Positions 6,895-46,040 of a stretch of DNA of 64,000 nt are shown here, piece after piece. The translations under genes were made by a program, and so were the position numbers. The notes under the pieces were generated by a model. That model was not told the DNA's origin. It worked only from the letters and a program-made list of their open reading frames with translations, and did no database searches. Source of the stretch: an uncultured bacterium (GTDB lineage: Bacteria; Patescibacteriota; JAHJAL01); assembly GCA_938004065.1 (NCBI GenBank), contig CALKWM010000038.1, positions 2,466 through 66,465 on the forward strand. The letters are read 5' to 3'. Numbering within the stretch: position 1 is the first letter of the stretch; each line of letters starts with the position of its first letter.

Positions 6895-6970
6895 GGGATA
6901 GGTTTTAAACCTGTCCCTACCCTGTGAATTTATAAAACCGGCAGTGGTCTTGATAGACTGCCGGTTTTTT
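6895..6970 (+). terminator. REP-like palindrome GGGATAGGTTTTAAACCTGTCCCTACC followed by a hairpin terminator (aaaccggcagt..actgccggttttttt)
   Basis: Perfect palindromes directly after the hpf stop. The first belongs to the repeat family also at 26818, 42166 and 43118. Confidence 0.6.
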
Positions 6971-15443: not shown

Positions 15444-17393
15444 TTGTTTATAATAAGGGTTATGAATAAAAATAAAGCAAAAACTTTTTGCATCATCACT
15501 TTCGGGTGTGCCATGAATTATAGCGACTCGGACCGAATCGAGGCAGTATTGAAGGAAAACGGTTTGGTTCCGACCAAAAAAGATATTGAGGCCGATTTAG
15601 TGATTATCAATAGTTGCAGTGTCCGGCAAATGGCGGAGGATAGAACATATGGCAAAATCAGTAAATTGGCCAAGTTGAAAAAAAGACCCAAAATAATAGC
15701 CACCGGTTGCTTGGTGTCGGACAAGATTTGGAAAAAATTGTTGGACAAAAACAAATTTGATTTGTGTTTGCCGATTGACCGGATGATTGAACTGCCGAAA
15801 TATCTGGCGGAATGGGGACTGAATTGTCATCCCGAACACGAAAGCGAGTCATCGAGCGTTTCGAGCGATTCGGGATCCCAGAAGAAAATTACCAATTACC
15901 AATTACCAATTACCAATAAAATTCCAAATTCCAAATTCCAAATTCCAAACGAAACATATCTGTCGTCCTCGAGTCGAATGAGTGAAGCGAATATCGACAT
16001 CGGGGATCCAGAAAATAAATCTAAAGTATCAAGTAATAAGTATCAAGGATCAAGTTTGGTGTCCCTCGAACCCGAAGGGTCCACATTGGGACAACTCGGG
16101 ACGATAAATAATGAGATCCTGAATGGCTCGAATAGCCCTGCGGGCTTTCGGGTTCAGGATGACACCAAAAAATACAAGCATTATCTCGACATTGTGCCGA
16201 AGGGGAAACAGACTTTTACGGCGTATATCCCAATCATGACCGGGTGCAATAATTTTTGTTCATATTGTGCGGTGCCATACACTAGAGGCCGCGAAGTTTC
16301 GCGGCCGATGGCGGATGTAATCAACGAAGCCAAGATATTGGCGGAAAATGGGTGTATCGACTTAACTTTGTTGGGGCAGAATGTGAACTCATATAAGTGT
16401 CATCCTGAACTCGGAAGCGAGTCATCGAGCGCTTCGAGCGATTCAGGATCCCAGAAGAAAATTACCAATTACCAATTACCAATTACCAATAAAATTCCAA
16501 ATTCCAAATTCCAAATTCCAAACGAAACATATTTGTCATCCTCGAGTCGAATGAGTGAAGCGGATATCGACAACGGGGATCCAGAAAATAAATATCAAAT
16601 CTCGAATAAATCGCATGGATCCCCGATCCTGCATCCGGGCATTCGCCGGACAGGTTCGCTGGACAAGTTAGCGAAGCGCCCGCCTAAACTAGGAGGGGGA
16701 AGTGAATTAAATAACTCTTTTGTGGAATTATTGCGAAGAGTATCGGATATTAAAGAATTAAAAAGAATATTTTTTATTTCCTCGCATCCGAAAGATATGT
16801 CGGAGGAGTTGATTAGTTTGGTGGCTAGTCGTGATAATTTGTGTAATTACATCCATTTGCCGGTACAGGCGGGAGATAATGAAATTTTAAAAAAGATGAA
16901 CCGGCATTACACACGTGAGCAATATCTTGATCTGGTGGCAATGATTAGAAATACTATTCCCAATGTTAGTTTGACGACAGATCTGATCGTTGGCTTTCCG
17001 GGCGAAAGCGAAAAACAATTTGAGCAATCAGTTGATTTATTCCGACGATGTAAATTTGATATGGCTTTTATCGCCGAGTATTCACCGCGACCCAAAACAG
17101 CCGCTGCTAATTTGAAAGATAATGTCCCCAAAGCGGAAAAACATAGACGAAAGAAGTTTTTAAATGACGAGGTGTTAGCAGTATCTGCACTTGAAAATAA
17201 CAAAAAACTGGAAGGCAAAATTATACCGGTTTTAATATCTCGAGCGAATAAAAATGGATTGATTGGGTTGACTGAAGGGTTAAAACAAGTGCATATCAAA
17301 GGGGATAAAAAAATGATCGGGCAGATTTTGCCGATCAAGATTGTTAAAGCAATGAAGTGGGCGCTGGAGGGAAGAGTTATCAATCATCGATAA
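15444..17393 (+). CDS. miaB: tRNA-i6A37 methylthiotransferase MiaB carrying two in-frame blocks of palindromic repeat-element insertions
   Basis: MTTase N-domain (FCIITFGCAMNYSDS), radical-SAM CNNFCSYCAV and a C-terminal TRAM-like region. 649 aa against ~440-450 expected. Extra ~200 aa map to 15825-16165 and 16398-16700 and consist of copies of the hairpin repeats found intergenically. Confidence 0.85.
   Translation: MFIIRVMNKNKAKTFCIITFGCAMNYSDSDRIEAVLKENGLVPTKKDIEADLVIINSCSVRQMAEDRTYGKISKLAKLKKRPKIIATGCLVSDKIWKKLLDKNKFDLCLPIDRMIELPKYLAEWGLNCHPEHESESSSVSSDSGSQKKITNYQLPITNKIPNSKFQIPNETYLSSSSRMSEANIDIGDPENKSKVSSNKYQGSSLVSLEPEGSTLGQLGTINNEILNGSNSPAGFRVQDDTKKYKHYLDIVPKGKQTFTAYIPIMTGCNNFCSYCAVPYTRGREVSRPMADVINEAKILAENGCIDLTLLGQNVNSYKCHPELGSESSSASSDSGSQKKITNYQLPITNKIPNSKFQIPNETYLSSSSRMSEADIDNGDPENKYQISNKSHGSPILHPGIRRTGSLDKLAKRPPKLGGGSELNNSFVELLRRVSDIKELKRIFFISSHPKDMSEELISLVASRDNLCNYIHLPVQAGDNEILKKMNRHYTREQYLDLVAMIRNTIPNVSLTTDLIVGFPGESEKQFEQSVDLFRRCKFDMAFIAEYSPRPKTAAANLKDNVPKAEKHRRKKFLNDEVLAVSALENNKKLEGKIIPVLISRANKNGLIGLTEGLKQVHIKGDKKMIGQILPIKIVKAMKWALEGRVINHR
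15825..16165. repeat. insertion block 1 in miaB: hairpin element TGTCATCCCGAAC..GATTCGGGATCC, heptamer repeats (ATTACCA)x3-(ATTCCAA)x4, element TGTCGTCCTCGAG..GGGGATCCA, element GTGTCCCTCGAACC..CTCGGGACGA, element GAGATCCTGAAT..GGGTTCAGGATGACA
   Basis: Seen in sequence. Same families occur in intergenic DNA (e.g. 21529, 24647, 19336). Confidence 0.8.
16398..16700. repeat. insertion block 2 in miaB: near-duplicate of block 1 (TGTCATCCTGAAC..GATTCAGGATCC, heptamers, TGTCATCCTCGAG..GGGGATCCA, GGATCCCCGATCC..GCGAAGCGCCCGCC)
   Basis: Encodes CHPELGSESSSASSDSGSQKKITNYQLPITNKIPNSKFQIPNETYLSSSSRMSEADIDNGDPENK, almost identical to the block-1 peptide. Confidence 0.8.
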
Positions 17394-18002: not shown

Positions 18003-18062
18003 AAATACACAACCACCCCATCCGCCCAGGGCGGATTGCCCCTCCTTCAAAAGGAGGGGAGT
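18003..18062. repeat. GC-rich palindromic repeat CACCCC..CCGCCCAGGGCGGA..CCCCTCCTTCAAAAGGAGGGG
   Basis: Homologous to the first element of the in-frame insertion in trmD (27117-27175). Confidence 0.6.
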
Positions 18063-18114: not shown

Positions 18115-19296
18115 ATGACAAGAAATAATTCTAAAAAAGTGAAGTTGGTGTGTATCGGGGGGCCGACAGCTTCGGGGAAAACCGAAGCATCTTTAGTATT
18201 GGCGGAAAAATTTGATGGAGCGATAATTTCCTGTGATTCGAGGCAGATTTACAAAGAGCTGGATGTTTCGACTGATAAAATACCATACTCTCTCCCCTAT
18301 CATGACCCGATTTTATATCGTGGTATAGAACATTATGGAATAAATGTCGCTGAGATTGATAAGCCATTCACATTGTTTGATTGGATGACATATTGCCGAG
18401 GAGCGATTGCCAAAATCGTAAATTCAGGGAAAATTCCATTTCTAGTGGGCGGGACCGGATTATACATTCAGTCAATTATTGAAAATTATAAATTGAAACA
18501 GGATTTTGATGCTGAGTTGAGAGAAGAATTGAATAAAATGTCATTGAAACAATTGCAGACGAGATTGAAAGAATTAAATCCTGATTTGTATGAAAAGATT
18601 GATGTTAATAATCCGCGGAGGGTGGTGAGAGGGATAGAAAGAGCCATTCTGTCATCCTCGAGTCGGAAGCCCGAAGGGCGATCAGACATCGGGGATCCAG
18701 AAAATAAATCTCAAATATCAAATATCAAATATCAAGCAAAAAAAACACATGGATCCCCGATAGCGAAGCGCCCGCCGAGTCGGTGGACTTTCGATTCGAG
18801 GATGACAAAAGAGAGTATCGTAAATCATTCTAAATCCCTGCACGAAGCGGATGGTAATGATGAAAACAATGAGATCCTGAATCGCTCGGAAACTCATCCG
18901 ATAAAAAATCGGATTCGTATCCGGGTTCAGGATGACAAAATAAAAAAATTTGACAGTCTGGTATTGTCATTTAATCCAGAGCGAGAGTTGATTAGACAAC
19001 GGATCGAGAATCGTGTCAAAAAACACCAAGAAATCGGAGTAATTGATGAGGTGAAAAGATTGGTAGAAAAATATGGGGCTGACAATCAGATCTTGAATTC
19101 TACTATTAGTGTGCAGGAATACATTCCATATGTTTTGGGAAAAATTTCATTGGAAAAAGCGCAAGAAAGGGTTGTTATAAATAATTATCAGTATGCCAAA
19201 AGGCAGATGACCTGGTTTAAGAAGTATGGAAATACGGTATTTGTCGATAGTGTAAAGGAGATGGAGAGAGAGATTGTTAAATGGATAAATGGATAA
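18115..19296 (+). CDS. miaA: tRNA dimethylallyltransferase MiaA with an in-frame ~96-aa insertion made of three hairpin repeat elements
   Basis: P-loop GGPTASGKTE, DSRQIYKELD, LVGGTGLY motifs. 393 aa against ~300 expected. Insertion 18650-18937. Confidence 0.85.
   Translation: MTRNNSKKVKLVCIGGPTASGKTEASLVLAEKFDGAIISCDSRQIYKELDVSTDKIPYSLPYHDPILYRGIEHYGINVAEIDKPFTLFDWMTYCRGAIAKIVNSGKIPFLVGGTGLYIQSIIENYKLKQDFDAELREELNKMSLKQLQTRLKELNPDLYEKIDVNNPRRVVRGIERAILSSSSRKPEGRSDIGDPENKSQISNIKYQAKKTHGSPIAKRPPSRWTFDSRMTKESIVNHSKSLHEADGNDENNEILNRSETHPIKNRIRIRVQDDKIKKFDSLVLSFNPERELIRQRIENRVKKHQEIGVIDEVKRLVEKYGADNQILNSTISVQEYIPYVLGKISLEKAQERVVINNYQYAKRQMTWFKKYGNTVFVDSVKEMEREIVKWING
18650..18937. repeat. insertion block in miaA: TGTCATCCTCGAG..GGGGATCCA; ATATCAA heptamer x3; GGATCCCCGA..GAGGATGACA; GAGATCCTGAAT..GGGTTCAGGATGACA
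   Basis: Seen in sequence. Translated in the same frame (LSSSSR...DIGDPENK) as the copies in miaB. Confidence 0.8.
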
Positions 19297-19569: not shown

Positions 19570-21525
19570 ATGGATTTTTTTGGAAAAAAATATGATTCCT
19601 TGCCCGGAGACGACAAGAAAAGACAAATCAAAAAAAACTGGCAGGAGATTGATAGCTGGGAAGGATATCTGTCCAGTGATGATCAAGTATTATCCAAACA
19701 ACGAGATATATCGGAAATTGTGCCAACGAGAAATTTTGGCAACTTAAATATCATATATCTGGTATGTTTTTTGCTATGTGTGATTTTGGCGGGTCGACTG
19801 TGGCAGTTGCAGATAGTACAAGGCAAGGAAAGTTTGGAAAAAGCCGAAGGCAATATACTGCATGTAGAAACGGTATATGCGCCGCGTGGGGTGATATATG
19901 ATCGTAACCGCAATATTTTGGCCGGCAATAAATCACGTTATGACTTGACTGTTATACCTGCCCACATGAGTCAAGACGTCGAGAAACGCTATGATTGTTA
20001 TCTACAAATATCACAAATATTGGGCAAAGATTCCAGTGAAATACGGGCAATTGTAGAAGAGAAAGGTATAAATAATTGGAATGAAGTAAAAGTGGTTAAG
20101 GATTTGGAACGAGAAAAAGCATTAATCCTAAAAACAAAACAATTACCCGGTTTTGAAGTAGAGAATATTTCTTCCAGAAAATATTATTGTGATGAACAAT
20201 GTGCGCATGTCTTGGGATATACCGGTCAGGTCTCAGAAAATGAATTACTTGCAGACGCTGAATACCAACCAATTGATCAGGTTGGCCGGGCCGGTTTGGA
20301 GTCGTATTATGAACGGGAACTAAAAGGCACAAATGGAGCTGAATATCGCATCGTCGATGCTTCAGGAGAAACTATCAATGTACTTACGCCCAGAGAAGGA
20401 GTGTCTGGGAACAACATTGTAACCGCTCTCGATATGGATTTACAAAAACTCGCTTTTGAAGAAATCTCCTCACAGATTGGTCGAGGCAATACAACCGGTG
20501 GATCGGTAGTGGTGTCCAACCCAAATACGGGCGAGATTATTGCCTTGGTCAGTGCGCCAGCTTATTCGTCGGAAAAAATGTCAGCCGGATTAACCGAGGA
20601 AGAATACGCAAATTTACTCAATAATGACAAATTACCATTGTTCAACCGGCCGATTACCGGTGAATACCCTCCGGGGTCGACATTCAAGATCGTATCGGCG
20701 ACCGGGATTTTGTCGGAGGGATTGGCCGACATCTATGATTATGTTAACGACCAGGGTACGATCAGGGTAGTAAATAAATATGATCCGAATATCATATACT
20801 ATTTTTATAGCTGGGACCGTTCCGGTTTAGGTTCGGTCAATATCATCGGGGCTTTGGAAAAATCTTCCGATATTTATTTCTATGTATATGGTGGTGGTTG
20901 GGAAGATATCGAAGGATTGGGAATCGAACGAATTAAAGAATACAGTGAAAGATTTATGATATCCAAGACACTGGGAATCGACATTGAGGGAGAGCGGCCC
21001 GGATTTATCCCAACACCGGAGTGGAAATACAAAACCTTCGGTGAAGACTGGTATCTGGGAGATGATTATAATACTATTATCGGCCAGGGTTCAATCCAAG
21101 CAACACCGTTGCAAGTCAATGCTTATACTGCAGCTATCGCTAATGGTGGCAAAATATATCGACCGCATATCGTAAACGAAGTCATTGATAGCACGGGCAA
21201 TGTGATTAACAGGATAAAACCGGAAATTATCAAACAAGACATTGCCTTACCGGAAGTTATTGGTATTATCAGACAAGGACTGGAGGCGGTGGTAAATACC
21301 GGTACAGCCGGTATTATGAAAAATGCTATAGTTAGTGTAGCCGGCAAAACCGGTACCGCACAGTATGAAAATAATACCAAAGAACACGCTTGGTTTACAT
21401 GTTATGCTCCGGTGGACAATCCTCAAATCGCAGTAACGGTAATGGTTGAAGGTGGCGGAGAAGGTTCCAGTGTGGCCGTACCGATTGCATTGAAATTGGT
21501 AAATGAATATTTTCGGGAAGAGTAA
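19570..21525 (+). CDS. mrdA: penicillin-binding protein 2 (peptidoglycan D,D-transpeptidase)
   Basis: N-terminal TM, dimerisation domain, transpeptidase motifs STFK (PGSTFKIVSA), SSD/SxN-like, KTGT (GKTGTAQ). Confidence 0.85.
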   Translation: MDFFGKKYDSLPGDDKKRQIKKNWQEIDSWEGYLSSDDQVLSKQRDISEIVPTRNFGNLNIIYLVCFLLCVILAGRLWQLQIVQGKESLEKAEGNILHVETVYAPRGVIYDRNRNILAGNKSRYDLTVIPAHMSQDVEKRYDCYLQISQILGKDSSEIRAIVEEKGINNWNEVKVVKDLEREKALILKTKQLPGFEVENISSRKYYCDEQCAHVLGYTGQVSENELLADAEYQPIDQVGRAGLESYYERELKGTNGAEYRIVDASGETINVLTPREGVSGNNIVTALDMDLQKLAFEEISSQIGRGNTTGGSVVVSNPNTGEIIALVSAPAYSSEKMSAGLTEEEYANLLNNDKLPLFNRPITGEYPPGSTFKIVSATGILSEGLADIYDYVNDQGTIRVVNKYDPNIIYYFYSWDRSGLGSVNIIGALEKSSDIYFYVYGGGWEDIEGLGIERIKEYSERFMISKTLGIDIEGERPGFIPTPEWKYKTFGEDWYLGDDYNTIIGQGSIQATPLQVNAYTAAIANGGKIYRPHIVNEVIDSTGNVINRIKPEIIKQDIALPEVIGIIRQGLEAVVNTGTAGIMKNAIVSVAGKTGTAQYENNTKEHAWFTCYAPVDNPQIAVTVMVEGGGEGSSVAVPIALKLVNEYFREE

Positions 21526-21528
21526 TTT

Positions 21529-21981
21529 TGTCATCCTGAACCCGAATCCGCTCAGAGCGGATATCGAGCTATTCAGGATCTTGCAACTCATCACTTAGAA
21601 ACTTGGCAATACAAATCGTTCCAAGAAGAATTATTTCTCTCTATTAGTTTGACTTTTCAGGATATATTCCAGTCTTTTTAGTATTTTTTCTTTTCCAATG
21701 GCATCGTCAATATCATCAAACATCTCAAAATAAACGAGTTGATCAATATTGTATTTGGATGCAAAACATTTTATAATCCTATTTTTATGTGCCCAAACTC
21801 TACCCTTTAAATAATTTTTGACTCCAATATACAAAATCCCTTTTGCTCTATTTGCTAGAATATAAACATAATAATCATTTTTCATAATCTGATTTTTTCA
21901 ATTTAGAGAATAATTTAATATTAAGAGATCCTGAATTGCTCGATGTGCTCATAAAAATTCGCTTTCGGGTTCAGGATGACA
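21529..21981. mobile_element. GIY-YIG cassette: hairpin element (21529-21580, TGTCATCCTGAA..ATTCAGGATC), GIY-YIG ORF, inverted hairpin element (21925-21981, GAGATCCTGAAT..GGGTTCAGGATGACA)
   Basis: Outer ends are perfect inverted repeats TGTCATCCTGAAC / GTTCAGGATGACA. Second copy with the same architecture at 26029-26466. Confidence 0.6.
21631..21885 (-). CDS. GIY-YIG nuclease superfamily protein (YhbQ/URI-like)
   Basis: YYVYILANRAKGILYIGVKNYLKGRVWAHKN matches the GIY-(10-11)-YIG pattern of small URI-domain nucleases. Confidence 0.75.
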   Translation of the reverse strand: MKNDYYVYILANRAKGILYIGVKNYLKGRVWAHKNRIIKCFASKYNIDQLVYFEMFDDIDDAIGKEKILKRLEYILKSQTNREK

Positions 21982-21995
21982 CCAAGGATTAATAC

Positions 21996-23799: not shown

Positions 23800-24633
23800 A
23801 TGATTAACAAAATATTTTTAAATCTCGGGATGACAGAGCGGGAAGCTAAAGTGTATTTAGCAATTTTGAAATTGTGCAATCCCAATATCAGCGACTTACA
23901 AAAACAGACCGGCCTTTCCAGGAGTACGGTTTATTATTGTATCGATTTATTGATTAAGAATGATATCGTTTTTTCTAAAAAGCTTAATGAGAAGACAGTT
24001 TATGAAGCTATTTCCCCTGAACAATTGAAAAAAATCGTAGAATATAAAATTACCGAGCTCAAAAAAGACATAACGATATTTGAAAAAGCTATACCGGATA
24101 TCGTTCAGTCAACAAAAAAAGGGAAAATGAATCTGAAAATGCTAAAAGGATTTAAGTCTTTGACCAATACGATGCGAGATGTGTACATCGGTCACAAAAA
24201 TTCAACCGTAAGAGTTTTTGGCACAAAACCGAAAGAGTATAATTTAAAACATTTCGACAAATCTTTTGAAAAAACCATAAATAATCGAATAACAAACAAT
24301 GTTTTTTTGAAAGGAATTAGCCCTATTACGAAAAACAAATTTCTTGTTCGAGATAAAGACTTAAAACAACTTCGCGAGTCTAGATTTTTGCCGGAAAAGA
24401 CCTTTAATTTTCAAAGTGAGATATTTATTTTCGACGACTTGGTACTGGTAATCAGTGAGGATATTGAAAATGAAGTAAATACAATTTATTTTGATGATGT
24501 AAACTATGTGAATACTATGAAAATGATATTTGATTTGGCGTGGGAAGCGGCGGGGAAATATGATAAAGAAGTGGTGGCGGAGTATGAGAAAAACATATCA
24601 AACTTATCAAATATCAAACATAGCAAACAATAA
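23800..24633 (+). CDS. TrmB-like transcriptional regulator (N-terminal wHTH, C-terminal ligand domain)
   Basis: N-terminus LGMTEREAKVYLAILKLCNPNISDLQKQTGLSRSTVYYCIDLLIKNDIV is typical of TrmB-family HTH. C-terminal codons overlap ATATCAA-type heptamer repeats. Confidence 0.55.
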   Translation: MINKIFLNLGMTEREAKVYLAILKLCNPNISDLQKQTGLSRSTVYYCIDLLIKNDIVFSKKLNEKTVYEAISPEQLKKIVEYKITELKKDITIFEKAIPDIVQSTKKGKMNLKMLKGFKSLTNTMRDVYIGHKNSTVRVFGTKPKEYNLKHFDKSFEKTINNRITNNVFLKGISPITKNKFLVRDKDLKQLRESRFLPEKTFNFQSEIFIFDDLVLVISEDIENEVNTIYFDDVNYVNTMKMIFDLAWEAAGKYDKEVVAEYEKNISNLSNIKHSKQ

Positions 24634-24646
24634 ATAAGTATAAAAA

Positions 24647-24697: not shown

Positions 24698-25274
24698 AAA
24701 AAAGAAACACCTTATTTAATTTTGTAAAGGTGTTTATAGTATAATTTAGGCGGAAAATAGTTTCAAAATCCCTCACCTATTCCTAGGTTGGGTTTTTATT
24801 TTTGTGTTTGTTAGCTAATTTTTAGAAGATGATCTTACACATTTTTTTTTATATTAATTTTTGATAAGCATTTTAAAAAGGTACAAAGAATACTTGAAAA
24901 AGGATAATTTTGTTTTTGTTTTTGTTTTGGCCCTACCTTTTGAGGCGAAAATTTTTTCGTTTTTGTTCTCTTTCAAGTATTCTTGTTCATAAGGTGCATT
25001 GGGCTTAACCCAACATTTTTTGTTTTTGGATATTGGGTTTCTTTTTCCAATATCGTATTAGTGTAGCAAATCTGGAATAATAAGTCAATAGTCAGGTAAA
25101 CGAAACCTATCAAATTCCAAACATATCAAACTTATCAAACATATACATAAATTTAATTATGGTTTGTTAAGTTTGATATTTGCTAGGTTTGATATGTTTA
25201 ATACAGAGACGATTTGCAATTCACTGATTATTATTTATAATTGATATGATATTTTTATAACAAATTATTACATT

Positions 25275-25994
25275 ATGTCGAAGATGCGTTTGCAAAAATT
25301 TCTAGCGGAGAGCGGTGTCGGTTCCAGAAGGGAATGCGAGGAGCATATCTGGGAGGGACGGGTAAGGGTCAACGGACGAAAAGTGGCGGAAATGGGTGTA
25401 ATAATTGATCCGGAAGTGGATGAAGTGCGATTTAAAAATCGAATCGTGCGACTTGATGAAAAAGTATATTATGTTTTAAATAAACCGGTTGGTTATGTTT
25501 CAACCAGGAGAGATATTAACGCTCCCAAGATGGTAGTGGATTTGGTTCCCCAAAACCCGCCCGTTTACCCTGTCGGCAGGTTGGACAAGGAATCGGAAGG
25601 ATTGATTTTGATTACCAATGACGGTGAGTTGACCAATCAATTAACCCATCCTTCCAGTCATGTGGAAAAGGAATATATGGTTGTGTGCCGGCCTCGATTT
25701 GATGATTTGAGATTGATGGAAGCGGTCAAAAAGTTGCAAAAAGGAGTGTTAATTGACGGATATCTGACACGTGAGGCCAAAGTGTTTGCGGTCAGTGAAG
25801 ATCGGAGTAAAGTAAAGTTCAATATCATCATCAAAGAGGGTAAAAATCGGCAGATTCGCCGGATGTGCCACAATGTCGGATTGAAGGTTATATCGCTCAA
25901 AAGAATCAGAATAGGCAGGTTAAAATTGGGAGGGTTGAAGAAGGGAGAATACAAAGTGTTAGATATCAATAATATTAAGAAACTATTATACTAA
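25275..25994 (+). CDS. rluB: RluB/RsuA-family 23S/16S rRNA pseudouridine synthase (S4 domain + catalytic domain)
   Basis: S4 domain (MRLQKFLAESGVGSRRECEEHI), catalytic motif GRLDKESEGLILITNDG. Confidence 0.8.
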   Translation: MSKMRLQKFLAESGVGSRRECEEHIWEGRVRVNGRKVAEMGVIIDPEVDEVRFKNRIVRLDEKVYYVLNKPVGYVSTRRDINAPKMVVDLVPQNPPVYPVGRLDKESEGLILITNDGELTNQLTHPSSHVEKEYMVVCRPRFDDLRLMEAVKKLQKGVLIDGYLTREAKVFAVSEDRSKVKFNIIIKEGKNRQIRRMCHNVGLKVISLKRIRIGRLKLGGLKKGEYKVLDINNIKKLLY

Positions 25995-26028
25995 CAATGT
26001 CAAATTGCGAGTAAATTTGTCATCCTGA

Positions 26029-26466
26029 ACCCGAAAGGTCCGTCTTCGGACCGCTTCGAGTGATTCAGGATCCCTCCAATTACCAGAATTGAATATCATT
26101 ATACAAATCATTCCAATTCGGATTTTCTTTTTCTATCAATTTTATTTTCCAACTTCTTTTCCAATCTTTTAACTTTTTTTCTCTGTATATTGCTTCATTG
26201 ATATCCTCAAATATTTCATAGTACACTATTTTATCAATATTATATTTTGATGTGAATCCTCTGATGATTTTGTTCTTATGTTCCCATACTCGACCCTTTA
26301 AAACACTTGTAACGCCAATATACAAACTAGCTCGTTTTTTGTTTGTTAAAATGTAGACATAATAAATATTTTTCATAATTATATTATCTAACTTAGTAAT
26401 TAAATATATATTAAGAGATCCTGAATTGCTTGAAGCGCCCTTCGGGCTTTCAGGTTCAGGATGACA
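26029..26466. mobile_element. second GIY-YIG cassette: hairpin element (26029-26085), GIY-YIG ORF, inverted hairpin element (26415-26466)
   Basis: Same architecture and flanks (..atattaagagatcctgaattgct..) as 21529-21981. An extra solo right end ..GCAAGTTCAGGATGACA at 26518-26534. Confidence 0.6.
26080..26376 (-). CDS. GIY-YIG nuclease superfamily protein (paralog of 21631-21885)
   Basis: YYVYILTNKKRASLYIGVTSVLKGRVWEHKN. Confidence 0.75.
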   Translation of the reverse strand: MKNIYYVYILTNKKRASLYIGVTSVLKGRVWEHKNKIIRGFTSKYNIDKIVYYEIFEDINEAIYREKKLKDWKRSWKIKLIEKENPNWNDLYNDIQFW

Positions 26467-26565
26467 CTTTTTCTTTAATTTTGATCAAATTTGATAATTT
26501 CCGCCCATGGTGGCTTGCAAGTTCAGGATGACATAATTAGTTTGACATTTGCTAAGTATAATTAA

Positions 26566-27519
26566 ATGAAAATAGACATTATTACCCTATTTCCCGAGAT
26601 GTTTGCTGGTGTATTTGAGGCCAGTATTATCGGACGTGCCAGGGAAAAGGGCTTGATAGAGATAAATTTGCATAATCTCAGGGACTGGGCAGTCGATAAA
26701 CACAAAACCGTTGATGACACGCCTTATGGCGGAGGCGCGGGGATGGTGATCAAGGTGGAGGTGATGGACCGATGCCTGACAGACATAATTCAAAAATCAA
26801 AAATCAAAAATCAAAAAGGACAGGTTACAAACCTGTCCCTACAACGGATATTAATGACACCGCAGGGAAGGACATTTGATCAGAAAAAGGCGAGGGAGAT
26901 GGCGAAATTGGACCAAATCGTTTTGATCTGCGGGCATTACGAAGGATTTGATCAAAGAATTCATGAAAATTTGGTGGACGAGGAATTATCGATCGGAGAT
27001 TTTGTCCTGACCGGTGGAGAGATTCCGGCGATGGCGGTAGTAGATGCGGTAGCTCGACTGGTGCCGGGGGTGATCAAAGAAGAGTCACATATGAATGAGA
27101 GTTTTTCGGTGGTACCTGATAACCACCCCGCCACGCCTCATCGGCGGGAGCCCCTCCTTGAAAAGGAGGGGTGTAAAAAGAAGGAGAAAAGTGATGGATC
27201 CCCCCACCACACCGCCACGCCTTCGCTCATAAAAAGGGAGCTTCGGCGAGCTGCTCCTACTCGAACAGGGGGGAACTACCACCACCCCGAATCGGTCTGC
27301 GACCTTTCTACCCTTCCACTGGTCCACCCCAAAAATTGTTTCACAATTTCTGGGGACCCCGGGGCAGGAGGGGAATATAGACAAGATTTGTATCTAGAAT
27401 ATCCGCATTATACAAAACCGGCGGAATACAAAGGGTGGAAAGTGCCGGAGGTGCTAATGTCCGGCAATCACGCCGAGATTGAAAAATGGAGACAAAAAAA
27501 TATCAAAAAGAAGCCATGA
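26566..27519 (+). CDS. trmD: tRNA (guanine37-N1)-methyltransferase TrmD with two in-frame repeat insertions
   Basis: MKIDIITLFPEMF, GGGAGMV, LICGHYEGFDQR, LTGGEIPAMAVVDAV, SGNHAEIEKWR motifs. 317 aa against ~230-250 expected. Insertions at 26790-26850 and ~27115-27375. Confidence 0.85.
   Translation: MKIDIITLFPEMFAGVFEASIIGRAREKGLIEINLHNLRDWAVDKHKTVDDTPYGGGAGMVIKVEVMDRCLTDIIQKSKIKNQKGQVTNLSLQRILMTPQGRTFDQKKAREMAKLDQIVLICGHYEGFDQRIHENLVDEELSIGDFVLTGGEIPAMAVVDAVARLVPGVIKEESHMNESFSVVPDNHPATPHRREPLLEKEGCKKKEKSDGSPHHTATPSLIKRELRRAAPTRTGGNYHHPESVCDLSTLPLVHPKNCFTISGDPGAGGEYRQDLYLEYPHYTKPAEYKGWKVPEVLMSGNHAEIEKWRQKNIKKKP
26790..26850. repeat. in-frame insertion 1 in trmD: (AAAATCA)x3 heptamers + REP palindrome GGACAGGTTACAAACCTGTCCCTAC
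   Basis: Palindrome family also found intergenically at 6895, 42166 and 43118. Confidence 0.7.
27115..27375. repeat. in-frame GC-rich insertion 2 in trmD (CACCCCGCCACGCC..GCCCCTCCTTGAAAAGGAGGGG.. and further GC-rich palindromic units)
   Basis: Strong local GC shift inside a low-GC gene. First unit homologous to the intergenic element at 18003-18062. Sits between conserved ...EESFS and LEYPHYTKP... segments of TrmD. Confidence 0.65.
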
Positions 27520-27542
27520 AAAAAATTGGCTTCTTTTTTTGC
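27508..27542. terminator. bidirectional hairpin terminator between trmD and the convergent gene (aagaagccatgaaaaaaattggcttcttttttt)
   Basis: Stem gaagcca/tggcttc with flanking A/T runs. Confidence 0.5.
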
Positions 27543-27983
27543 TTATAGTTTTTGTTTGATGCGATCTGTCCAGGCGGTGAAATCGTCGGGAGCAACGGCA
27601 TAATAATAATCCCCCCTGTTATTTTGTCTGACTTCAACCTGAAAATTTATGGGAACTTCTTGTTCAATCAAATCCAAGATTTTTTGTGAAAATCTCCGGA
27701 AATGAGATCGAAAATCTTTTTTGACCATGATCTCAAATTCCTCATCGCCTCGATCATTGGTAACCGTCGCATAGAGGTGAATTTGGGCGGGCTGTGAAAA
27801 ACCACCCAATCCATGTCCCAAGTTTTTGAAACTTCGATTTGATTTTTGTCCTTTTTTTGTACCTTGGACTAAATTGAAGTTTCCTTTTACGACTTTTATG
27901 CCTAGTAGTTTAGCCGGTAATATTTTTGCCAAGTGTATCATCCTTTCTTTTTTCTGGGCTGGTGCGGGATCCACGGACCCCAT
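27543..27983 (-). CDS. hypothetical protein
   Basis: 146-aa ORF. Likely start at the internal Met (MIHLAKI...). No recognised motif. Confidence 0.3.
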   Translation of the reverse strand: MGSVDPAPAQKKERMIHLAKILPAKLLGIKVVKGNFNLVQGTKKGQKSNRSFKNLGHGLGGFSQPAQIHLYATVTNDRGDEEFEIMVKKDFRSHFRRFSQKILDLIEQEVPINFQVEVRQNNRGDYYYAVAPDDFTAWTDRIKQKL

Positions 27984-30900
27984 TTATCTTCGAAGATCGC
28001 TTTGTTTTTGTTAAAGATCTGCATATATTTTTGATCGTCCAATTTGGCGAAACTGGCACGACCAATATGATGGACAAACACATCATCGGTCATTACAATC
28101 TTTTTGTCAATTTGTTTAAATTTATGGGAGAGGTCATCATCTTCAAACATACCAACTTCGTACTCTTCACTTAACAATCCGACTTTTTCCAAGTCTGATT
28201 TGCGGGCAATTGTGCAAAACAATGCTAACATTTTGTTTTCATTTATTATGTCCTGATTTTTGCGAGTATATTTCCAGGCAAATTGTTGCATGCCTTCAAT
28301 ATCTCGATAATCGACATCAATTTTTTGTTCATTGCCGATTGAGTTGGTTACCGGTCCCAAAAGCCCGATGTCGGGATTGGTTTCCATGTGATAAACCATA
28401 CCCCAAATCCAGTCATTGGTAACGATGGTGTCGTTGTTTAATAAAATTATATATTCACCTTCGGCAATTTTGATGCCTTGATTGTTGGCTTTGGCAAATC
28501 CCTTGTTATCCTGATTCAAGATAATTTTGATATTGGGAAAAATGTCTGAAATTTCCTGTAAATAAGCCGGGGTACTATCTGATGAATTATTGTCGATAAT
28601 TATTAATTCATAATTGGGGTAGCGAGAGTATTTGAAAATACTTTCCAGACAATTTTTGGTGTACTCGAGATTACCAAAAGTAACTATGACAATACTAACC
28701 GAAGGATATAGTTGGTAAATTTTTTTCTCAAAATCATCGACTCGTGATTTCCAGGAATTGGCCAGAGCAACGGCCTTGCGCTTGGATATGATTTCATTGT
28801 CATTTTCATCCAGAGCTTTTTGAATATTGTCGATAAACTCTTGCTGAGATTTGGAAAAATAACAAATGTCTTGGTGATCTTTTAGTTCCGGAAGTTCGAC
28901 TGTTACAACCGCTTTCCCGGAAGAAATGTATTCGTAGAATTTAACCGGATTGGTGGCCAAAGTAAGATTATTGATTTTGAACGGGATCAGACAAACATCA
29001 AAACAAGAAAGTAAATTGGGTAATTCTTCATATTTTTTTTCGCCCAAGAGATGAACATTGGGCAGATTTTCGATTGGTCGTAAATCCGCACCATAGGTGT
29101 TGCCGATCAAGACAAAACTGTAATTTGGATAATGTTTGGCACAGCGGGCCACTAATTCACAATCAAACCAATCAGATATGGCACCATAATAGCCAATGAT
29201 CGGTTTTTTGATTAATGACTCTTGACATGAAGGTAGATTGGCAAAGTGCTTGATATCACTCCCATTTCGTATCAATGCCGTGTTTTGATTGTATTCATGG
29301 GCTTTTTGGTGTAGAGATACAGATGTTGTGATCACACAATCTGACGATGATAATAAATCATTTTCCAGATCTGATTGTTTGGTAGTATTGGTGGAAAAAC
29401 CGGAATGATCATCCATGCAGTCATAGACAATTTTGTTGCGACTAATTGTTTTAACCAAAGAAAACCAAAATGGTTGATGAACAATGGAAACACTATGACC
29501 TATTTTAAATTTGTCTTTGATGATACTGATAGACTTTTGCAGAATATTGACTTGATCTGGAGCAAGAGTGTCTTGATAGATATTAATATCCTGGGTACTT
29601 GGCAACTGAATTTGGTAAATATTTTCACAAATATTGCCAATCTTGATAGATTTTTCCAAATCAGTAGAATCGGTCCGGTTGAAAGTTGGGGAAAAATAAA
29701 ACACTCGGTGTCCCCTCTTGGCCAGTCGGGAAATAATCTGTTGCGGTCTTTGATAGCGACCATGCCAATCGATAACAGGAAAAACAAAAATATCGAGCAT
29801 AGTCTCGCGATGCAGAGTATCATCAATCAGGTCAGGATCAACTTTGTCGAGAGTGAGTTGCAAGACGCTATTGTTGGGAATGCCCGAAAACAAGCGGTGA
29901 TAGACGGGTTTGATAGTATTTTTTATGGGTTGCGGAATGTATGGAGCGAGTTTGTCGAGTTGTCGCTTGGTCTGGATGCGGGTATTGATGGTTGATTTTT
30001 TGATAAAATCCATACCTGATCGAAGAGGTTGGGTTAGTTTCCAGGAGGTGGAGGATTCTAATTCTTGGAGGCGGGATTTTAATAACGAATTTTCATTTTC
30101 TTTATCAACCAAATTCTTTAACTTTGCTTCAAGTTGGATTATTTTCTGGTCTTTTGCAAAAATATCTTCATTGAGAACAGAAAGTCGGTTTTTTAAATCC
30201 AAAATATGATTTGCAGATTTTGAAATTGAGATTTTTTTCTGAAGCTCAAGCTCCCACATATAAAAATATTTCCAATAATCGATCCATTCTTCATCTGATA
30301 TTTCATGTAAAATAATTTTTGATATTGTATTTTTGCATAGCTTATGAAACCAGAAGTCTTTTTTGAATATTAATTCCCTAAATTTGCTTGGACTATCCGA
30401 TGGTATCGTGTTTTCTAGAGAAAGAAGTTGCTGAAAAAAATTGTGGAAAAACCTCAAAGTAGGGATAATTTTGTTAGTGGTAGTGACTAATTCCCAATCA
30501 ATTATCCAATTGGAGTCATTGTTGTAGAAAATATTTTGAGCGATTAGATCGCAGTTTTGTGAATTTTTATCTCGAAGTATAAGATATTTTGATTCAAAAA
30601 AAGTCATTTCTTTCGTGGAATCTATTTGAAAAGGAGATGCAGTCGAAATATGAATATCTTGAAAAGTGTTAAACAAATCTAACCAGTCAAAAAACAGTTT
30701 GTTTGTGATTTTTTCAATATTGTCAGATTTGCATTTTTCGATAATCTTTTGCCACGAGATACCTGATGCCGGTTTTTCGAAATAGACTAGATGGTTGCTG
30801 AAAGTATATTTGTCTACCGTAACAGGAATATTTGGAAATTTTGAGGAATATATTTTTTTTACATCGTCTTCAAATCTAATAACTCTGCCAGAATCTTCGT

Positions 30901-42158: not shown

Positions 42159-42290
42159 CAAATTGGTAGGGACAGGTTTGAAACCTGTCCCTACCAAAAG
42201 GACAACCCGAGGGTTGCCCCTACAAATAATCATACGCCACCCTGGTTCACGAAAAACATGTGGATGGTACGGATGATGATGAAATGATTT

Positions 42291-42974: not shown

Positions 42975-43301
42975 ATCTTAACTTATGTTTTATAATTAAT
43001 ATATATTAACTTACTATATATAGGTTAACATATTATTAATTTTATTTCAATAGGATAATTTAAGAGAAAAATAAAGGAGGGAGATGATATATTTGTAGGG
43101 GCAATTCCCGCCCAAGGCGGACAGGAGCAACCTGTCCCTACGGGAAATCACACCTCACCACGGTTTACAAAAAACATTCTGACAGTGCGGGGGATGATAA
43201 TTTGATACAAAGTGATCGAATATATTTATTGACCTGAAATTTATATTTGTTTCTTTAAGATAAATAATTATAGAGATAAGATATTTATAAATCTGTCCAA
43301 C

Positions 43302-43743: not shown

Positions 43744-44187
43744 CTAGCTTTTTTTTACCGCCATTTTTATTTGTGCTCTGGTACCAGTAGGAGAATCAAT
43801 GCCAATCGTATCCAATGCGTCAATTTCCTCGATGTCAAACCAACCATAATCCATAAGTTCCGGAGATAATTTCACTTTAGTTTTGTTGTTATCAATATCT
43901 ACCAAAAAAATTAAGCCCAGGCGATAGATGTCGTTAGAGTCTTTTTGCCAACTGTAACTATGCAAATATTTTACAGGTGTGTCAGATGTAATTTTTATGC
44001 CTACTTCTTCATAAATTTCTCGAATTAAAGTTTGTTCCACCGATTCGCCAATTTCCATTTTCCCTCCCAGATTTTGCCATTTCCCGGGAAAAATATCGTC
44101 GTTTATATTTCTTCTAACTAGAAGATATTTGTGAGCGCTATTTTTTATAACGGCAATTACGGATACAATTTGTAATAAATTGGTCAT
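43744..44187 (-). CDS. Nudix hydrolase
   Basis: Nudix box GGKMEIGESVEQTLIREIYEEVGI. Confidence 0.8.
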   Translation of the reverse strand: MTNLLQIVSVIAVIKNSAHKYLLVRRNINDDIFPGKWQNLGGKMEIGESVEQTLIREIYEEVGIKITSDTPVKYLHSYSWQKDSNDIYRLGLIFLVDIDNNKTKVKLSPELMDYGWFDIEEIDALDTIGIDSPTGTRAQIKMAVKKS

Positions 44188-44270
44188 GGTTTTTTGATAA
44201 TAATTTTACGGATCTATCTCCCCGCCCTTTGGGCAATTCAGAATGTTCAGTTATTCAAACCACCTTCATT

Positions 44271-44640
44271 TCTCAGGATGACAGAGATCCTGAATCGCTC
44301 GAGCGCTCGTATAACTCGCCTCGGGTTCAGGATGACATTGTAATTTGTTTGGAATTTGATTAGACAAGGATGGGTGGAACAACGTAGAACTCCTTCCATT
44401 TCTTAAGATGACAGAGATCCTGAATCGCTCGAGTGCTAGTATAACTCGCCTCGGGTTCAGGATGACATTGTGATTTGTTTGGAATTTGATTAGACAAGGA
44501 TGGGTGGAACAACGTAGAACTCCTTCCATTTCTTAAGATGACAGAGATCCTGAATCGCTCGAGTGCTCGTATAACTCGCCTCGGGTTCAGGATGACATTG
44601 TGATTTGTTTTCCGCCCAAGGCGGACCAGTCATAAACTGG
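44271..44640. repeat. tandem array, ~2.8 copies of a 130-bp unit (hairpin element GAGATCCTGAATCGCTCGAG..GGGTTCAGGATGACA + 73-bp spacer)
   Basis: Unit starts at 44284, 44414 and 44544. Spacers are identical between units. Confidence 0.8.
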
Positions 44641-44672
44641 GGAAATTGGAAATTGATACTTGGAAATTGTCC

Positions 44673-46040
44673 TCAAACCCCTCCCCTATTTACAAAAAAC
44701 ATTCTGACAGTGCGGAGGATAATGATGAAATCCAGGAAAAGTGATCGGTTTTTGAGGTAATAGAGATCGTACTGGAGTTTTTCGTCGGCGTCGGAAAAGG
44801 ACGCGCTGTAGTTCATATTGATTTGCGCCCAACCGGTTAATCCCGGTTTGATGAGATGTCTTTTGTAATATAATTTTTGTCGTTGTTCCAGTTTGCCAGT
44901 AAATTCCGGCCGTTCGGGACGGGGACCGACGAGACTCATGTCCCCTATCAAAATATTCCAAAATTGCGGGAGCTCATCGAGACAAGATTTGCGCAGGAAT
45001 CGGCCGATGTTGGTAACTCGGTTGTCGTGGGTGGTAGCCCATTTGGCTTTTTTGGTTTCGGCATTTACCGTCATGGTGCGAATTTTGTAGAGATTGAATA
45101 CTTGATTATTGATGCCCATCCGAGATTGCGAGTAGAAAAACGGACCGCGAGAGTCGATTTTGACCAGAATGTATAATAGTGGAAATAAAATAACAAAAAT
45201 AATTAATCCGATCAAACCGGCCACGATATCGATCAATCTCTTGAAATAGATATTGATTTTATGCGGAGAGTGGTTGATATTGGCAAAAATTATCTGGCTG
45301 ATATGCTCCAAGGGGATTTTGCCGGTTAGGTGCTCGTACAGGTAAGAGATGTCAATCAGTTGAGCGTGGTTGGTCAAGCAGTAATCGGTAATTATCGCCA
45401 ATTCATCATGATGGTTGGACAATTTGTTGATGTCCAGAACGATAACATCGATTTGCCGGCGAGCGAGAATTTTTTTGATGTCACCGAGGTGACCGATAGT
45501 TTTTAATTGATTGTTGCGAATAGATTGATTGGTAACTATCATACCGTTTAATTGATAGCCAAAAGAGGGATTGGAATTGATCAGGCGAGATAAATTGGAT
45601 TCAAATTTCTGATTGCCGATAATAATGATTTTTTTTAACAGTGGGCGGGAGATGAAGATTTTGTTGAAAATTATCCGCCAGACAAAAAGGGAAAAGCCGG
45701 TAACTAAAAGCAGGATAATCAAAATAGTTTTGGGGGTAATGTTGAAGGCGGGAAAACTGTAAAAAAAGATAATTGATATGATAAAGTTAATTATAGATGA
45801 GCGAAGAGTGGCATAGGTTAAAAATTGTATATTGGAAAACTGAAAATAGTCGTAAAGTTGGTTGATATAGTACACAATCAGCCAGAGGACAAAAACCGGA
45901 ATAAAGACATACAAATGCTCGCGATAGTTGTAAAAAATATCGTTTAATATTTGGTATCGGATAAAAACACTTAGCCAGAGGGCGAGGATCAAAATACACA
46001 GGTCGCCCGAAAATAATGTAAGACGTTTAACGAGATTCAT
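44673..46040 (-). CDS. polyprenyl-phosphate hexose-1-phosphate transferase (WbaP/WcaJ-like bacterial sugar transferase)
   Basis: N-terminal TM bundle and C-terminal catalytic domain with DELPQFWNILIGDMSLVGPRPERPEF and a terminal ...RTVRMFFVNRGGV. Confidence 0.85.
   Translation of the reverse strand: MNLVKRLTLFSGDLCILILALWLSVFIRYQILNDIFYNYREHLYVFIPVFVLWLIVYYINQLYDYFQFSNIQFLTYATLRSSIINFIISIIFFYSFPAFNITPKTILIILLLVTGFSLFVWRIIFNKIFISRPLLKKIIIIGNQKFESNLSRLINSNPSFGYQLNGMIVTNQSIRNNQLKTIGHLGDIKKILARRQIDVIVLDINKLSNHHDELAIITDYCLTNHAQLIDISYLYEHLTGKIPLEHISQIIFANINHSPHKINIYFKRLIDIVAGLIGLIIFVILFPLLYILVKIDSRGPFFYSQSRMGINNQVFNLYKIRTMTVNAETKKAKWATTHDNRVTNIGRFLRKSCLDELPQFWNILIGDMSLVGPRPERPEFTGKLEQRQKLYYKRHLIKPGLTGWAQINMNYSASFSDADEKLQYDLYYLKNRSLFLDFIIILRTVRMFFVNRGGV

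Follow-up and report, generated by a model that had tools for sequence, protein, structure and literature searches.

Palindromic repeats that persist inside protein-coding genes are best known from Rickettsia, where many housekeeping genes contain Rickettsia palindromic elements (RPEs) in frame (Ogata et al. 2000, summarised in PMC10969869). Here we describe a comparable locus in an uncultured bacterium of the Patescibacteriota. In a stretch of 64,000 nucleotides (contig CALKWM010000038.1 of assembly GCA_938004065.1), hereafter called the window, the gene trmD, which encodes the tRNA (m1G37) methyltransferase, is interrupted in frame by two insertions, as a preliminary description made from the sequence alone had noticed. 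The reading that we favour, with a probability of roughly 72%, is that DNA resembling repetitive extragenic palindromes (REPs) or MITEs (transposable elements of the miniature inverted-repeat type) has been tolerated, and translated, at two permissive sites of TrmD, as a counterpart of the Rickettsia elements. Selfish DNA inside protein-coding genes would then extend to the candidate phyla radiation, for which literature searches found no description of in-gene repeat insertion.

The likeness to RPEs lies in palindromic repeats that are found both between genes and within unrelated housekeeping genes, in a host open reading frame (ORF) that is kept intact, in an added peptide thought to be placed without disturbing the fold, and in hosts with small genomes. 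On the other hand, the phylum is a different one, the modules measure 25 to 60 nt instead of about 100 to 150 nt, they are stacked into composites with heptamer microsatellites, and most of the larger insert has no other copy. Each RPE family encodes a conserved peptide, whereas here a reading frame recurs just in the hairpin family of two other genes, miaA and miaB. Judged by phylum and module size, membership in the Rickettsia families is very unlikely, and the resemblance would be one of mode of existence.

REPs and bacterial interspersed mosaic elements (BIMEs) resemble the present repeats in being imperfect palindromes of 20 to 40 nt, with copies just downstream of stop codons and a structure that is kept while the stems vary. 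Classical REPs, however, are essentially extragenic, and here copies lie also within ORFs; moreover, the commonest hairpin family flanks small GIY-YIG genes. A Y1 transposase domain, as in REP-associated tyrosine transposases (RAYTs), was found in none of the window ORFs of at least 120 aa scanned with Pfam. Because no RAYT was seen and copies occur within ORFs, the trmD inserts are, on sequence grounds, not classical REPs.

Intragenic MITEs such as ERIC, BOX, Coxiella QMITE1 and the Anabaena MITEs (PMC10969869) are also small non-autonomous repeats that persist in genes by way of an open frame, but no terminal inverted repeats, target-site duplications or autonomous partner were found for the trmD inserts. 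For the hairpin family of miaA and miaB, a candidate parent is a GIY-YIG cassette that ends in inverted hairpins. Lastly, ordinary TrmD proteins already vary in length in the loop that precedes the first knot strand (loop 1) and in the interdomain linker, the linker of Patescibacteria being typically about 9 residues longer than that of Staphylococcus aureus. The present protein differs from them in that its extra residues are, at least in part, encoded by repeats, and in that its linker has 92 additional residues, against a group median of 14 aa for the whole linker.

The trmD gene and its two inserts

The gene, the components of its inserts and the related copies elsewhere in the window are the following.

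26566-27519, plus strand: trmD ORF of 317 aa for the tRNA (m1G37) methyltransferase, interrupted in frame by two insertions
26788-26847, plus strand: insert 1, which occupies the variable loop that precedes the 'ILMTPQG' strand and encodes IQKSKIKNQKGQVTNLSLQR
26790-26817, plus strand: heptamer tandem array (TCAAAAA)x4 of insert 1 (Tandem Repeats Finder: period 7, 4.0 copies, 100% matches)
26818-26842, plus strand: REP-like palindrome of insert 1, GGACAGGTTACAAACCTGTCC (26818-26838) followed by CTAC, with a 9-bp stem and a 3-nt loop
27109-27384, plus strand: insert 2, of 276 nt and 92 aa with GC 0.57, situated in the linker between the domains, one residue past the ESF motif
27117-27172, plus strand: module a of insert 2, two tandem hairpins (CCCGCC..GGCGGG and CCCCTCCTT-GAA-AAGGAGGGG), member of a repeat family of about 55 nt
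27196-27275, plus strand: module b, GGATCCCCCC...GGGGGGAAC with internal hairpins, present only in the window and in the related locus L002, missing from the related locus L003
27280-27313, plus strand: module d, CACCACCCCGAATCGGTCTGCGACCTTTCTACCC, common to the trmD genes of L002 and L003/L004
27327-27355, plus strand: hairpin CCCCAAAAATTGT-TTC-ACAATTTCTGGGG, in both the minimum free energy (MFE) and the centroid fold, present in L002, not in L003
6894-6921, plus strand: intergenic copy of the insert-1 palindrome, 6 nt past the hpf stop codon
42163-42197, plus strand: intergenic copy of the insert-1 palindrome with a 16-bp stem, 5 nt past a stop codon
43095-43141, plus strand: variant intergenic copy, GTAGGGG...GGACAGGAGCAACCTGTCCCTAC, with the variant palindrome at 43118-43141
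18010-18062, plus strand: intergenic copy of module a, a double hairpin past a small ORF and upstream of miaA

From its matches over both the N-terminal and the C-terminal domains, the ORF is a member of the TrmD family. PF01746 (tRNA_m1G_MT), the sole Pfam family matched, is recognised at 4e-55 but split into two stretches, and 27 TrmD sequences of the PDB are each matched in two blocks (best 7e-64). The alignment to S. aureus TrmD (3ky7) covers query residues 1-181 and 274-311, so that residues 182-273 have no counterpart, the gap lying exactly at the S194/D195 boundary; residues 76-94 form a loop that is also about 11 aa longer than in the S. aureus protein. An AlphaFold2 model built with 68 homologues has a confidence score (pLDDT) above 90 in the core and of 42 to 55 at residues 182-273, and the top 50 Foldseek matches to this model are all TrmD, with a probability of 1.00. 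In a scan of GTDB genomes, the nearest species representatives have TrmD proteins 56 to 60% identical to this one, the best clearly labelled ones being Woesebacteria (56 to 58%).

Residues D50, R164, E178, S179/F180, G123-H-Y-E126 and G150-G-E152 are all present, and invariant or nearly so among the 68 homologues. In the numbering of PMC5372744, R164 is Arg154 and E178-S179-F180 is Asp169-Ser170-Phe171, the latter three being among the residues described there as catalytic or essential. The carboxylate is a Glu (E178) instead of an Asp, and this Glu is invariant in all 68 aligned Patescibacteria proteins. In crystals that lack tRNA the interdomain linker of TrmD is disordered, and upon tRNA binding it becomes a helix covering the G37 pocket (PMC5372744). 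Structural mapping, which the preliminary description had proposed as a check, places insert 2 in this linker and insert 1 in the loop before the first knot strand. According to the model, insert 2 is compatible with the fold, at a disordered-linker site where the pLDDT is low, and insert 1 occupies a variable loop. Two natural permissive sites in TrmD would in this way be pinpointed. The most surprising aspect is that insert 2 starts one residue past the Phe171 equivalent, and three past the catalytic base. An essential and knotted enzyme, which is also an antibiotic target, would hence carry a disordered loop of 92 residues one residue away from essential active-site residues, a situation of relevance to the mechanism of TrmD and to the folding of knotted proteins.

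As to its surroundings, trmD lies outside the usual rpsP-rimM-trmD-rplS context and is preceded by an rluB-like pseudouridine synthase gene (both genes together, 25275-27519), an arrangement that is kept in the relatives L002, L003 and L005.

Insert 1 joins a heptamer array to a REP-like palindrome, both also found between genes, and its translation is the one first noted; the array itself, initially read as three copies of AAAATCA, consists of four copies of TCAAAAA. Its hairpin folds at -13.6 kcal/mol (z -2.8). The exact pattern of the palindrome occurs three times in the window (in trmD, at 6896 and at 42170), against 0 expected in shuffles, and together with the variant at 43118 these copies bear out the recurrence in intergenic DNA that had been reported. 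A-rich heptamer arrays resembling that of insert 1 adjoin hairpin repeats between genes and within miaA and miaB. With insert 1, loop 1 reaches 23 aa, compared with 15 aa in most Patescibacteria TrmD. On the minus strand, 26816-26840 reads as a hairpin followed by a T-rich heptamer tail, which makes it an intrinsic-terminator-like site antisense to trmD; terminator-like matches in the region are at chance level (2 found, 1.4 expected).

Insert 2 is rich in hairpins and, with 0.57, in GC (0.445 in the remainder of trmD, 0.38 in the whole window); both properties had been noted, with a length of about 260 nt that is in fact 276 nt. Its MFE is -110 kcal/mol (z -2.9), and its fold is a series of local hairpins instead of a single domain. 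Within module a, CCCCTCCTTGAAAAGGAGGGG (27151-27171) is found again at 18039, where no copy is expected by chance, and the similarity extends over about 55 nt (18010-18062 against 27117-27172). The statement that the element recurs elsewhere in the window consequently holds for its first 55 nt or so, and fails for the remaining 210 nt or so: apart from orthologous trmD genes, neither the window nor the adjoining 8.4 kb upstream (about 72 kb examined in all) nor any of 143 fetched loci contains a second copy of 27173-27384. By sequence comparison, membership in a repeat family is demonstrated for module a only, and the remainder of insert 2 appears specific to this trmD lineage.

The length of insert 2 is a multiple of three, and the trmD frame runs through it without a stop. 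Of shuffles with matched composition, just 3.7% are open, and with a chance of 1/3 for a frame-neutral length this comes to about 1% by chance. The encoded peptide is hydrophilic (grand average of hydropathy -1.03) and rich in Pro, Gly and His. Peptides that would derive from it are TGGNYHHPESVCDLSTLPLVHPK, NCFTISGDPGAGGEYR and one containing AAPTR, while the junction peptide of an insert-free protein would be ...NESFSDLYLEYPHYTK. A search of the 92-aa peptide against 5.8 billion proteins gave no match, a null that is technically doubtful, the parent protein having been unmatched as well.

Six of the 92 codons of insert 2 are CCC proline codons, two of them as CCC-C. This corresponds to 65 per 1000, whereas 28 other coding sequences (CDS) have 9.7 per 1000. 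The reading frame at CCC and CCC-C codons presumably depends on m1G37, which is TrmD's own product, and because insert 2 is 6.7-fold enriched in codons read by way of that product, a link to reading-frame maintenance is conceivable. The enrichment is probably a by-product of C-runs.

Orthologous trmD genes and recurrent insertion sites

How do the inserts evolve in comparison with the gene that carries them? The relatives compared were L002, the closest one (82% protein identity), and L003 (65%), and pN and pS, the proportions of non-synonymous and synonymous differences, were obtained as Nei-Gojobori counts, core and insert being counted apart. Between the window and L002, the core has a pN of 0.017 to 0.027 and a pS of 0.27 to 0.32 (pairs 0.017/0.32 and 0.027/0.27), and between the window and L003 a pN of 0.09 to 0.12 and a pS of 0.68 to 0.79. 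For the alignable part of insert 2 (2b), the comparison with L003 gives a pN of 0.32 and a pS of 0.25. By these counts, the TrmD core is under strong purifying selection, and the sequence of the insert peptide is not under selection, since pN is about equal to pS in insert 2.

The identity between L002 and the window is mosaic over 24860-28995: 90 to 95% across rluB and the 5' half of trmD, and 97 to 100% from about 27200 through the downstream genes, which suggests recent recombination between lineages. The near-identity of insert 2 with its L002 counterpart is uninformative because the whole 3' half of the locus has this mosaic ancestry, and a nucleotide-level constraint deduced from its low synonymous divergence from L002 was rejected for that reason.

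Insert 2 is retained in three diverged lineages, the window, L002 and L003, modules b and c being missing from L003. Relative to L002, module a of the window has indels of 1 and 5 nt; as they sum to 6 nt, the frame is restored. It forms two adjacent hairpins in the trmD genes of the window, L002 and L003 and in the intergenic copy, with first stems of unrelated sequence, and this retention of a double hairpin points to maintenance at the nucleic-acid level; the hairpins are those of single-sequence folds of the four copies. In module d, a small stem reads GGCC/GGCC in L003 and GGTC/GACC in the window.

Of the 68 Patescibacteria TrmD, 27 have a loop 1 of 23 aa or more (mode 15), and 14 have a linker of 30 aa or more (median 14). 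In these homologues the surplus residues read as translated palindromes (for example, GAGFKPARGQAQGLPL) or as heptamer arrays (for example, KSQITNHKQISNSK). The element in loop 1 changes between close relatives: that of L002 (82%) differs from the window's, while that of L003 (65%) is the same. In L002 and L005, loop 1 is occupied by the hairpin family which, between the genes of the window, is the most frequent repeat, and the linker of L006 contains an independent composite of 9-mers, heptamers and hairpins. The inserts in trmD of L002, L003, L005 and L006 are all open. On the basis of these alignments, Patescibacteria TrmD has two hot spots of recurrent insertion, loop 1 and the linker.

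Tolerated repeats or other explanations

In the scenario that we favour, short hairpin-forming repeats, namely REP/MITE-like modules and an A-rich heptamer microsatellite, would have landed in trmD in several successive events, at two tolerant sites: the variable loop at the surface that precedes the first knot strand, and the interdomain linker that is disordered in free TrmD. Because TrmD is needed, only insertions that kept the frame and were free of stops would have survived, and the inserts would be transcribed and translated as hydrophilic disordered loops. Conservation would concern the reading frame and, in one module at least, the way the nucleic acid folds into hairpins, the peptide sequence itself being unselected. 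Translation through the inserts is most likely, because the frame is kept, all inserts are open and no RNA family is recognised, while removal at the RNA level would need none of these features; the activity of the enzyme and the mobility of the modules are likewise what we infer from the sequence.

Four observations weigh against this scenario. Insert 2 adjoins both the equivalent of the essential Phe171 and the catalytic base, and a loop of 92 aa beside catalytic residues could disturb catalysis. About 210 of its 276 nt are single-copy in the available sequence, its description as repeat DNA being demonstrated, by sequence similarity, for the first module only. Synonymous divergence from L003 is lower in the inserts (0.22 to 0.25) than in the core (0.68 to 0.79), and the hairpins of module a are kept despite changed stems. 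The last two observations hint at some constraint at the nucleic-acid level, or at homogenisation, which 'tolerated junk' does not explain.

The latter points are those on which a co-option of the inserts, or at least of insert 2, would build. Either the basic Pro/His-rich peptide would bind tRNA or a partner, or the hairpins would act in mRNA or DNA, possible roles being a translational pause between the knotted N-terminal and the C-terminal domains, mRNA stability, or an antisense terminator. Such a function would account for the retention of insert 2 in three lineages and its position exactly at the domain boundary, for the double hairpin that module a forms with unrelated stems in three orthologues and an intergenic copy, for the low synonymous divergence of the insert from L003, and for the hairpin and T-tract found antisense to insert 1. 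However, a pN about equal to pS indicates no selection at the peptide level, and a pLDDT of 42 to 55 no confident fold. The content of the inserts differs in close relatives (L003 has neither module b nor module c, and L002 has another element in loop 1), and most Patescibacteria TrmD lack the insert. The low divergence from L002 reflects mosaic ancestry of the 3' half, not constraint, and terminator-like matches do not exceed chance. We therefore regard co-option as unlikely.

Alternatively, insert 2 may be an intervening sequence that is absent from the protein, being spliced or processed out of the mRNA or bypassed by the ribosome. This explanation is kept alive mainly because insert 2 starts one residue past the Phe171 equivalent, a place where a large loop beside the catalytic residues looks risky (PMC5372744). 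The insert moreover sits between two perfectly conserved blocks with no TrmD residue lost, is strongly structured, as its MFE indicates, and evolves like non-coding DNA. The rRNA genes of this bacterial group carry many intervening sequences, which we also counted in its favour. An insert that is removed, however, has no need to be in frame and stop-free, nor would indels in its orthologues need to restore the frame; all inserts in miaA, miaB and the relatives are open too. Insert 2 is also pieced together from small hairpin modules that are independent of each other, one of which occurs as an intergenic repeat, and is not a single folded RNA. Neither a group I or II intron nor any other Rfam family was matched: the whole window gave 0 matches at the gathering score, and the region 26400-27700, searched at E <= 10, gave chance-level matches only, none of which spans the insert. 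We hold removal of insert 2 to be distinctly improbable.

Weak Rfam matches at 27459-27559 correspond to a terminator past trmD and are irrelevant to the insert. An intein was rejected on four counts: no Hint or homing-endonuclease domain (only PF01746 is matched), a length of 92 aa that is too short, no fold, and a start with Val.

A third explanation, that this copy of trmD is inactive or decaying while an intact copy exists elsewhere in the genome, is favoured by the proximity of the insert to the active site. The preliminary description had named an intact second copy as one finding that would refute its own reading, and within the 72 kb examined, a limited part of the genome, there is none: no window ORF of at least 120 aa, and no gene called over the 8.4 kb upstream, encodes a second PF01746 protein. 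All conserved motifs of the present copy are intact, strong purifying selection acts on its core in the comparisons with two relatives, and the insert-bearing form persists across several lineages and samples. These bacteria have small genomes, in which housekeeping genes are rarely duplicated. Decay of this copy is accordingly very improbable in our view. The GC jump within a low-GC gene could also come from an error of assembly or binning by which unrelated GC-rich reads were merged into trmD, but the probability of such an artefact is close to nil, as the identical TrmD is found on ENA contig ERZ724098 NODE_290 and at least five other contigs (longest, 326 kb), these at least six deriving from independent ENA, NCBI and Logan assemblies, and the insert is present in other samples at 82% and 65% protein identity.

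Repeats in miaA and miaB and the GIY-YIG cassettes

Two further tRNA-modification genes of the window contain repeats, and small GIY-YIG units carry the related hairpins.

15444-17393, plus strand: miaB, 649 aa, with in-frame hairpin and heptamer blocks at 15822-16171 and 16395 to about 16700
18115-19296, plus strand: miaA, 393 aa, with an in-frame block at 18648-18937 of the same hairpin family as in miaB
26000-26467, minus strand: GIY-YIG cassette (ORF 26080-26376; PF01541) with inverted hairpin ends, directly upstream of trmD
21520-21985, minus strand: paralogue of this cassette, with 79% column identity to the 26000-26467 unit
15880-15950, 16460-16530, 18700-18735, 2457-2520, 24591-24638 and 25103-25150: A-rich arrays

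In miaB the Pfam domains are split, with UPF0004 at residues 15-104, Radical_SAM in two stretches and TRAM at 588-646; in miaA, the IPPT profile of 243 positions is stretched across residues 44-370. The two blocks of miaB and the single block of miaA are all open, and the same reading frame recurs in each (LSSSSR..IDIGDPENK). The preliminary description had grouped these inserts with those of trmD. All do contain repeats, but they do not belong to the same family: the hairpins of miaA and miaB are cassette ends. By sequence comparison, the inserts of miaA and miaB are of a different and younger family than the older ones of trmD.

The two units of about 470 nt, with minus-strand GIY-YIG ORFs of 84 and 98 aa, end in inverted hairpins (TGTCATCCTGAACCCG...ATTCAGGATC / GATCCTGAAT...GGTTCAGGATGACA). 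Solo copies of these end hairpins are the commonest repeat of the window, and are the elements found within miaA and miaB. From its organisation, the unit looks like a mobile cassette with MITE-like derivatives. In metagenomes, 57 copies of the hairpin family were found, mostly intergenic; clear intragenic copies lie in frame in a gatA-like amidase gene and an ATP-grasp gene, and a GIY-YIG gene adjoins just one of the 57. None of the 119 closest MiaA homologues, all of 267 to 339 aa, has a comparable insert. When the miaA insert peptide was run against 1.84 billion representatives in a full HMMER scan, it matched only the organism's own MiaB, such a search being underpowered for elements of 25 aa.

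Are genes for tRNA modification preferred hosts? Locally the pattern first described is there: in the 72 kb, inserts are carried by 3/3 tRNA-modification genes and by 0 of about 47 other CDS, those without such elements including rluB and ksgA, which modify rRNA, the tRNA synthetase genes serS and thrS, and uvrA, mrdA, folD and gpmI. All three hosts act on tRNA position 37 (TrmD, m1G37; MiaA, i6A37; MiaB, ms2i6A37). Outside this region the pattern is not supported, as the 119 MiaA homologues and the amidase and ATP-grasp hosts indicate. It is further weakened by the choice of the category after seeing the data, and by the greater age and other families of the trmD inserts. The position-37 pattern may be a coincidence, since the miaA insert is unique to this genome. 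The stronger proposal, that hairpin modules in trmD are selected at the nucleic-acid level and, separately, that position-37 enzymes are preferred or specially tolerant hosts in this lineage, seems to us a long shot on the available sequences.

Whatever their origin, the inserts have a practical effect in this bacterial group: they inflate protein lengths, split domain matches and can mislead annotation and alignment.

A-rich heptamer and octamer arrays (AATTACC, AAATTCC, AAATATC, AAACTTATC...) are found together with the hairpin repeats, between genes as well as within miaA and miaB, and the arrays within genes are translated as ITNYQLPITNKIPNSKFQIPN and similar peptides. At 44258-44647, between a NUDIX gene (43744-44187) and a sugar-transferase gene (44673-46040), lie three tandem intergenic units of 130 nt, all containing the hairpin-family motif GATCCTGAATCGCTCG; identities to the reference unit are 93% and 68%. 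Two large ORFs, 48864-51080 (no Pfam match) and 57651-62075, contain internal repeats at the protein level, with periods of 156 nt and 297 nt; they probably encode surface proteins and are unrelated to the hairpin elements.

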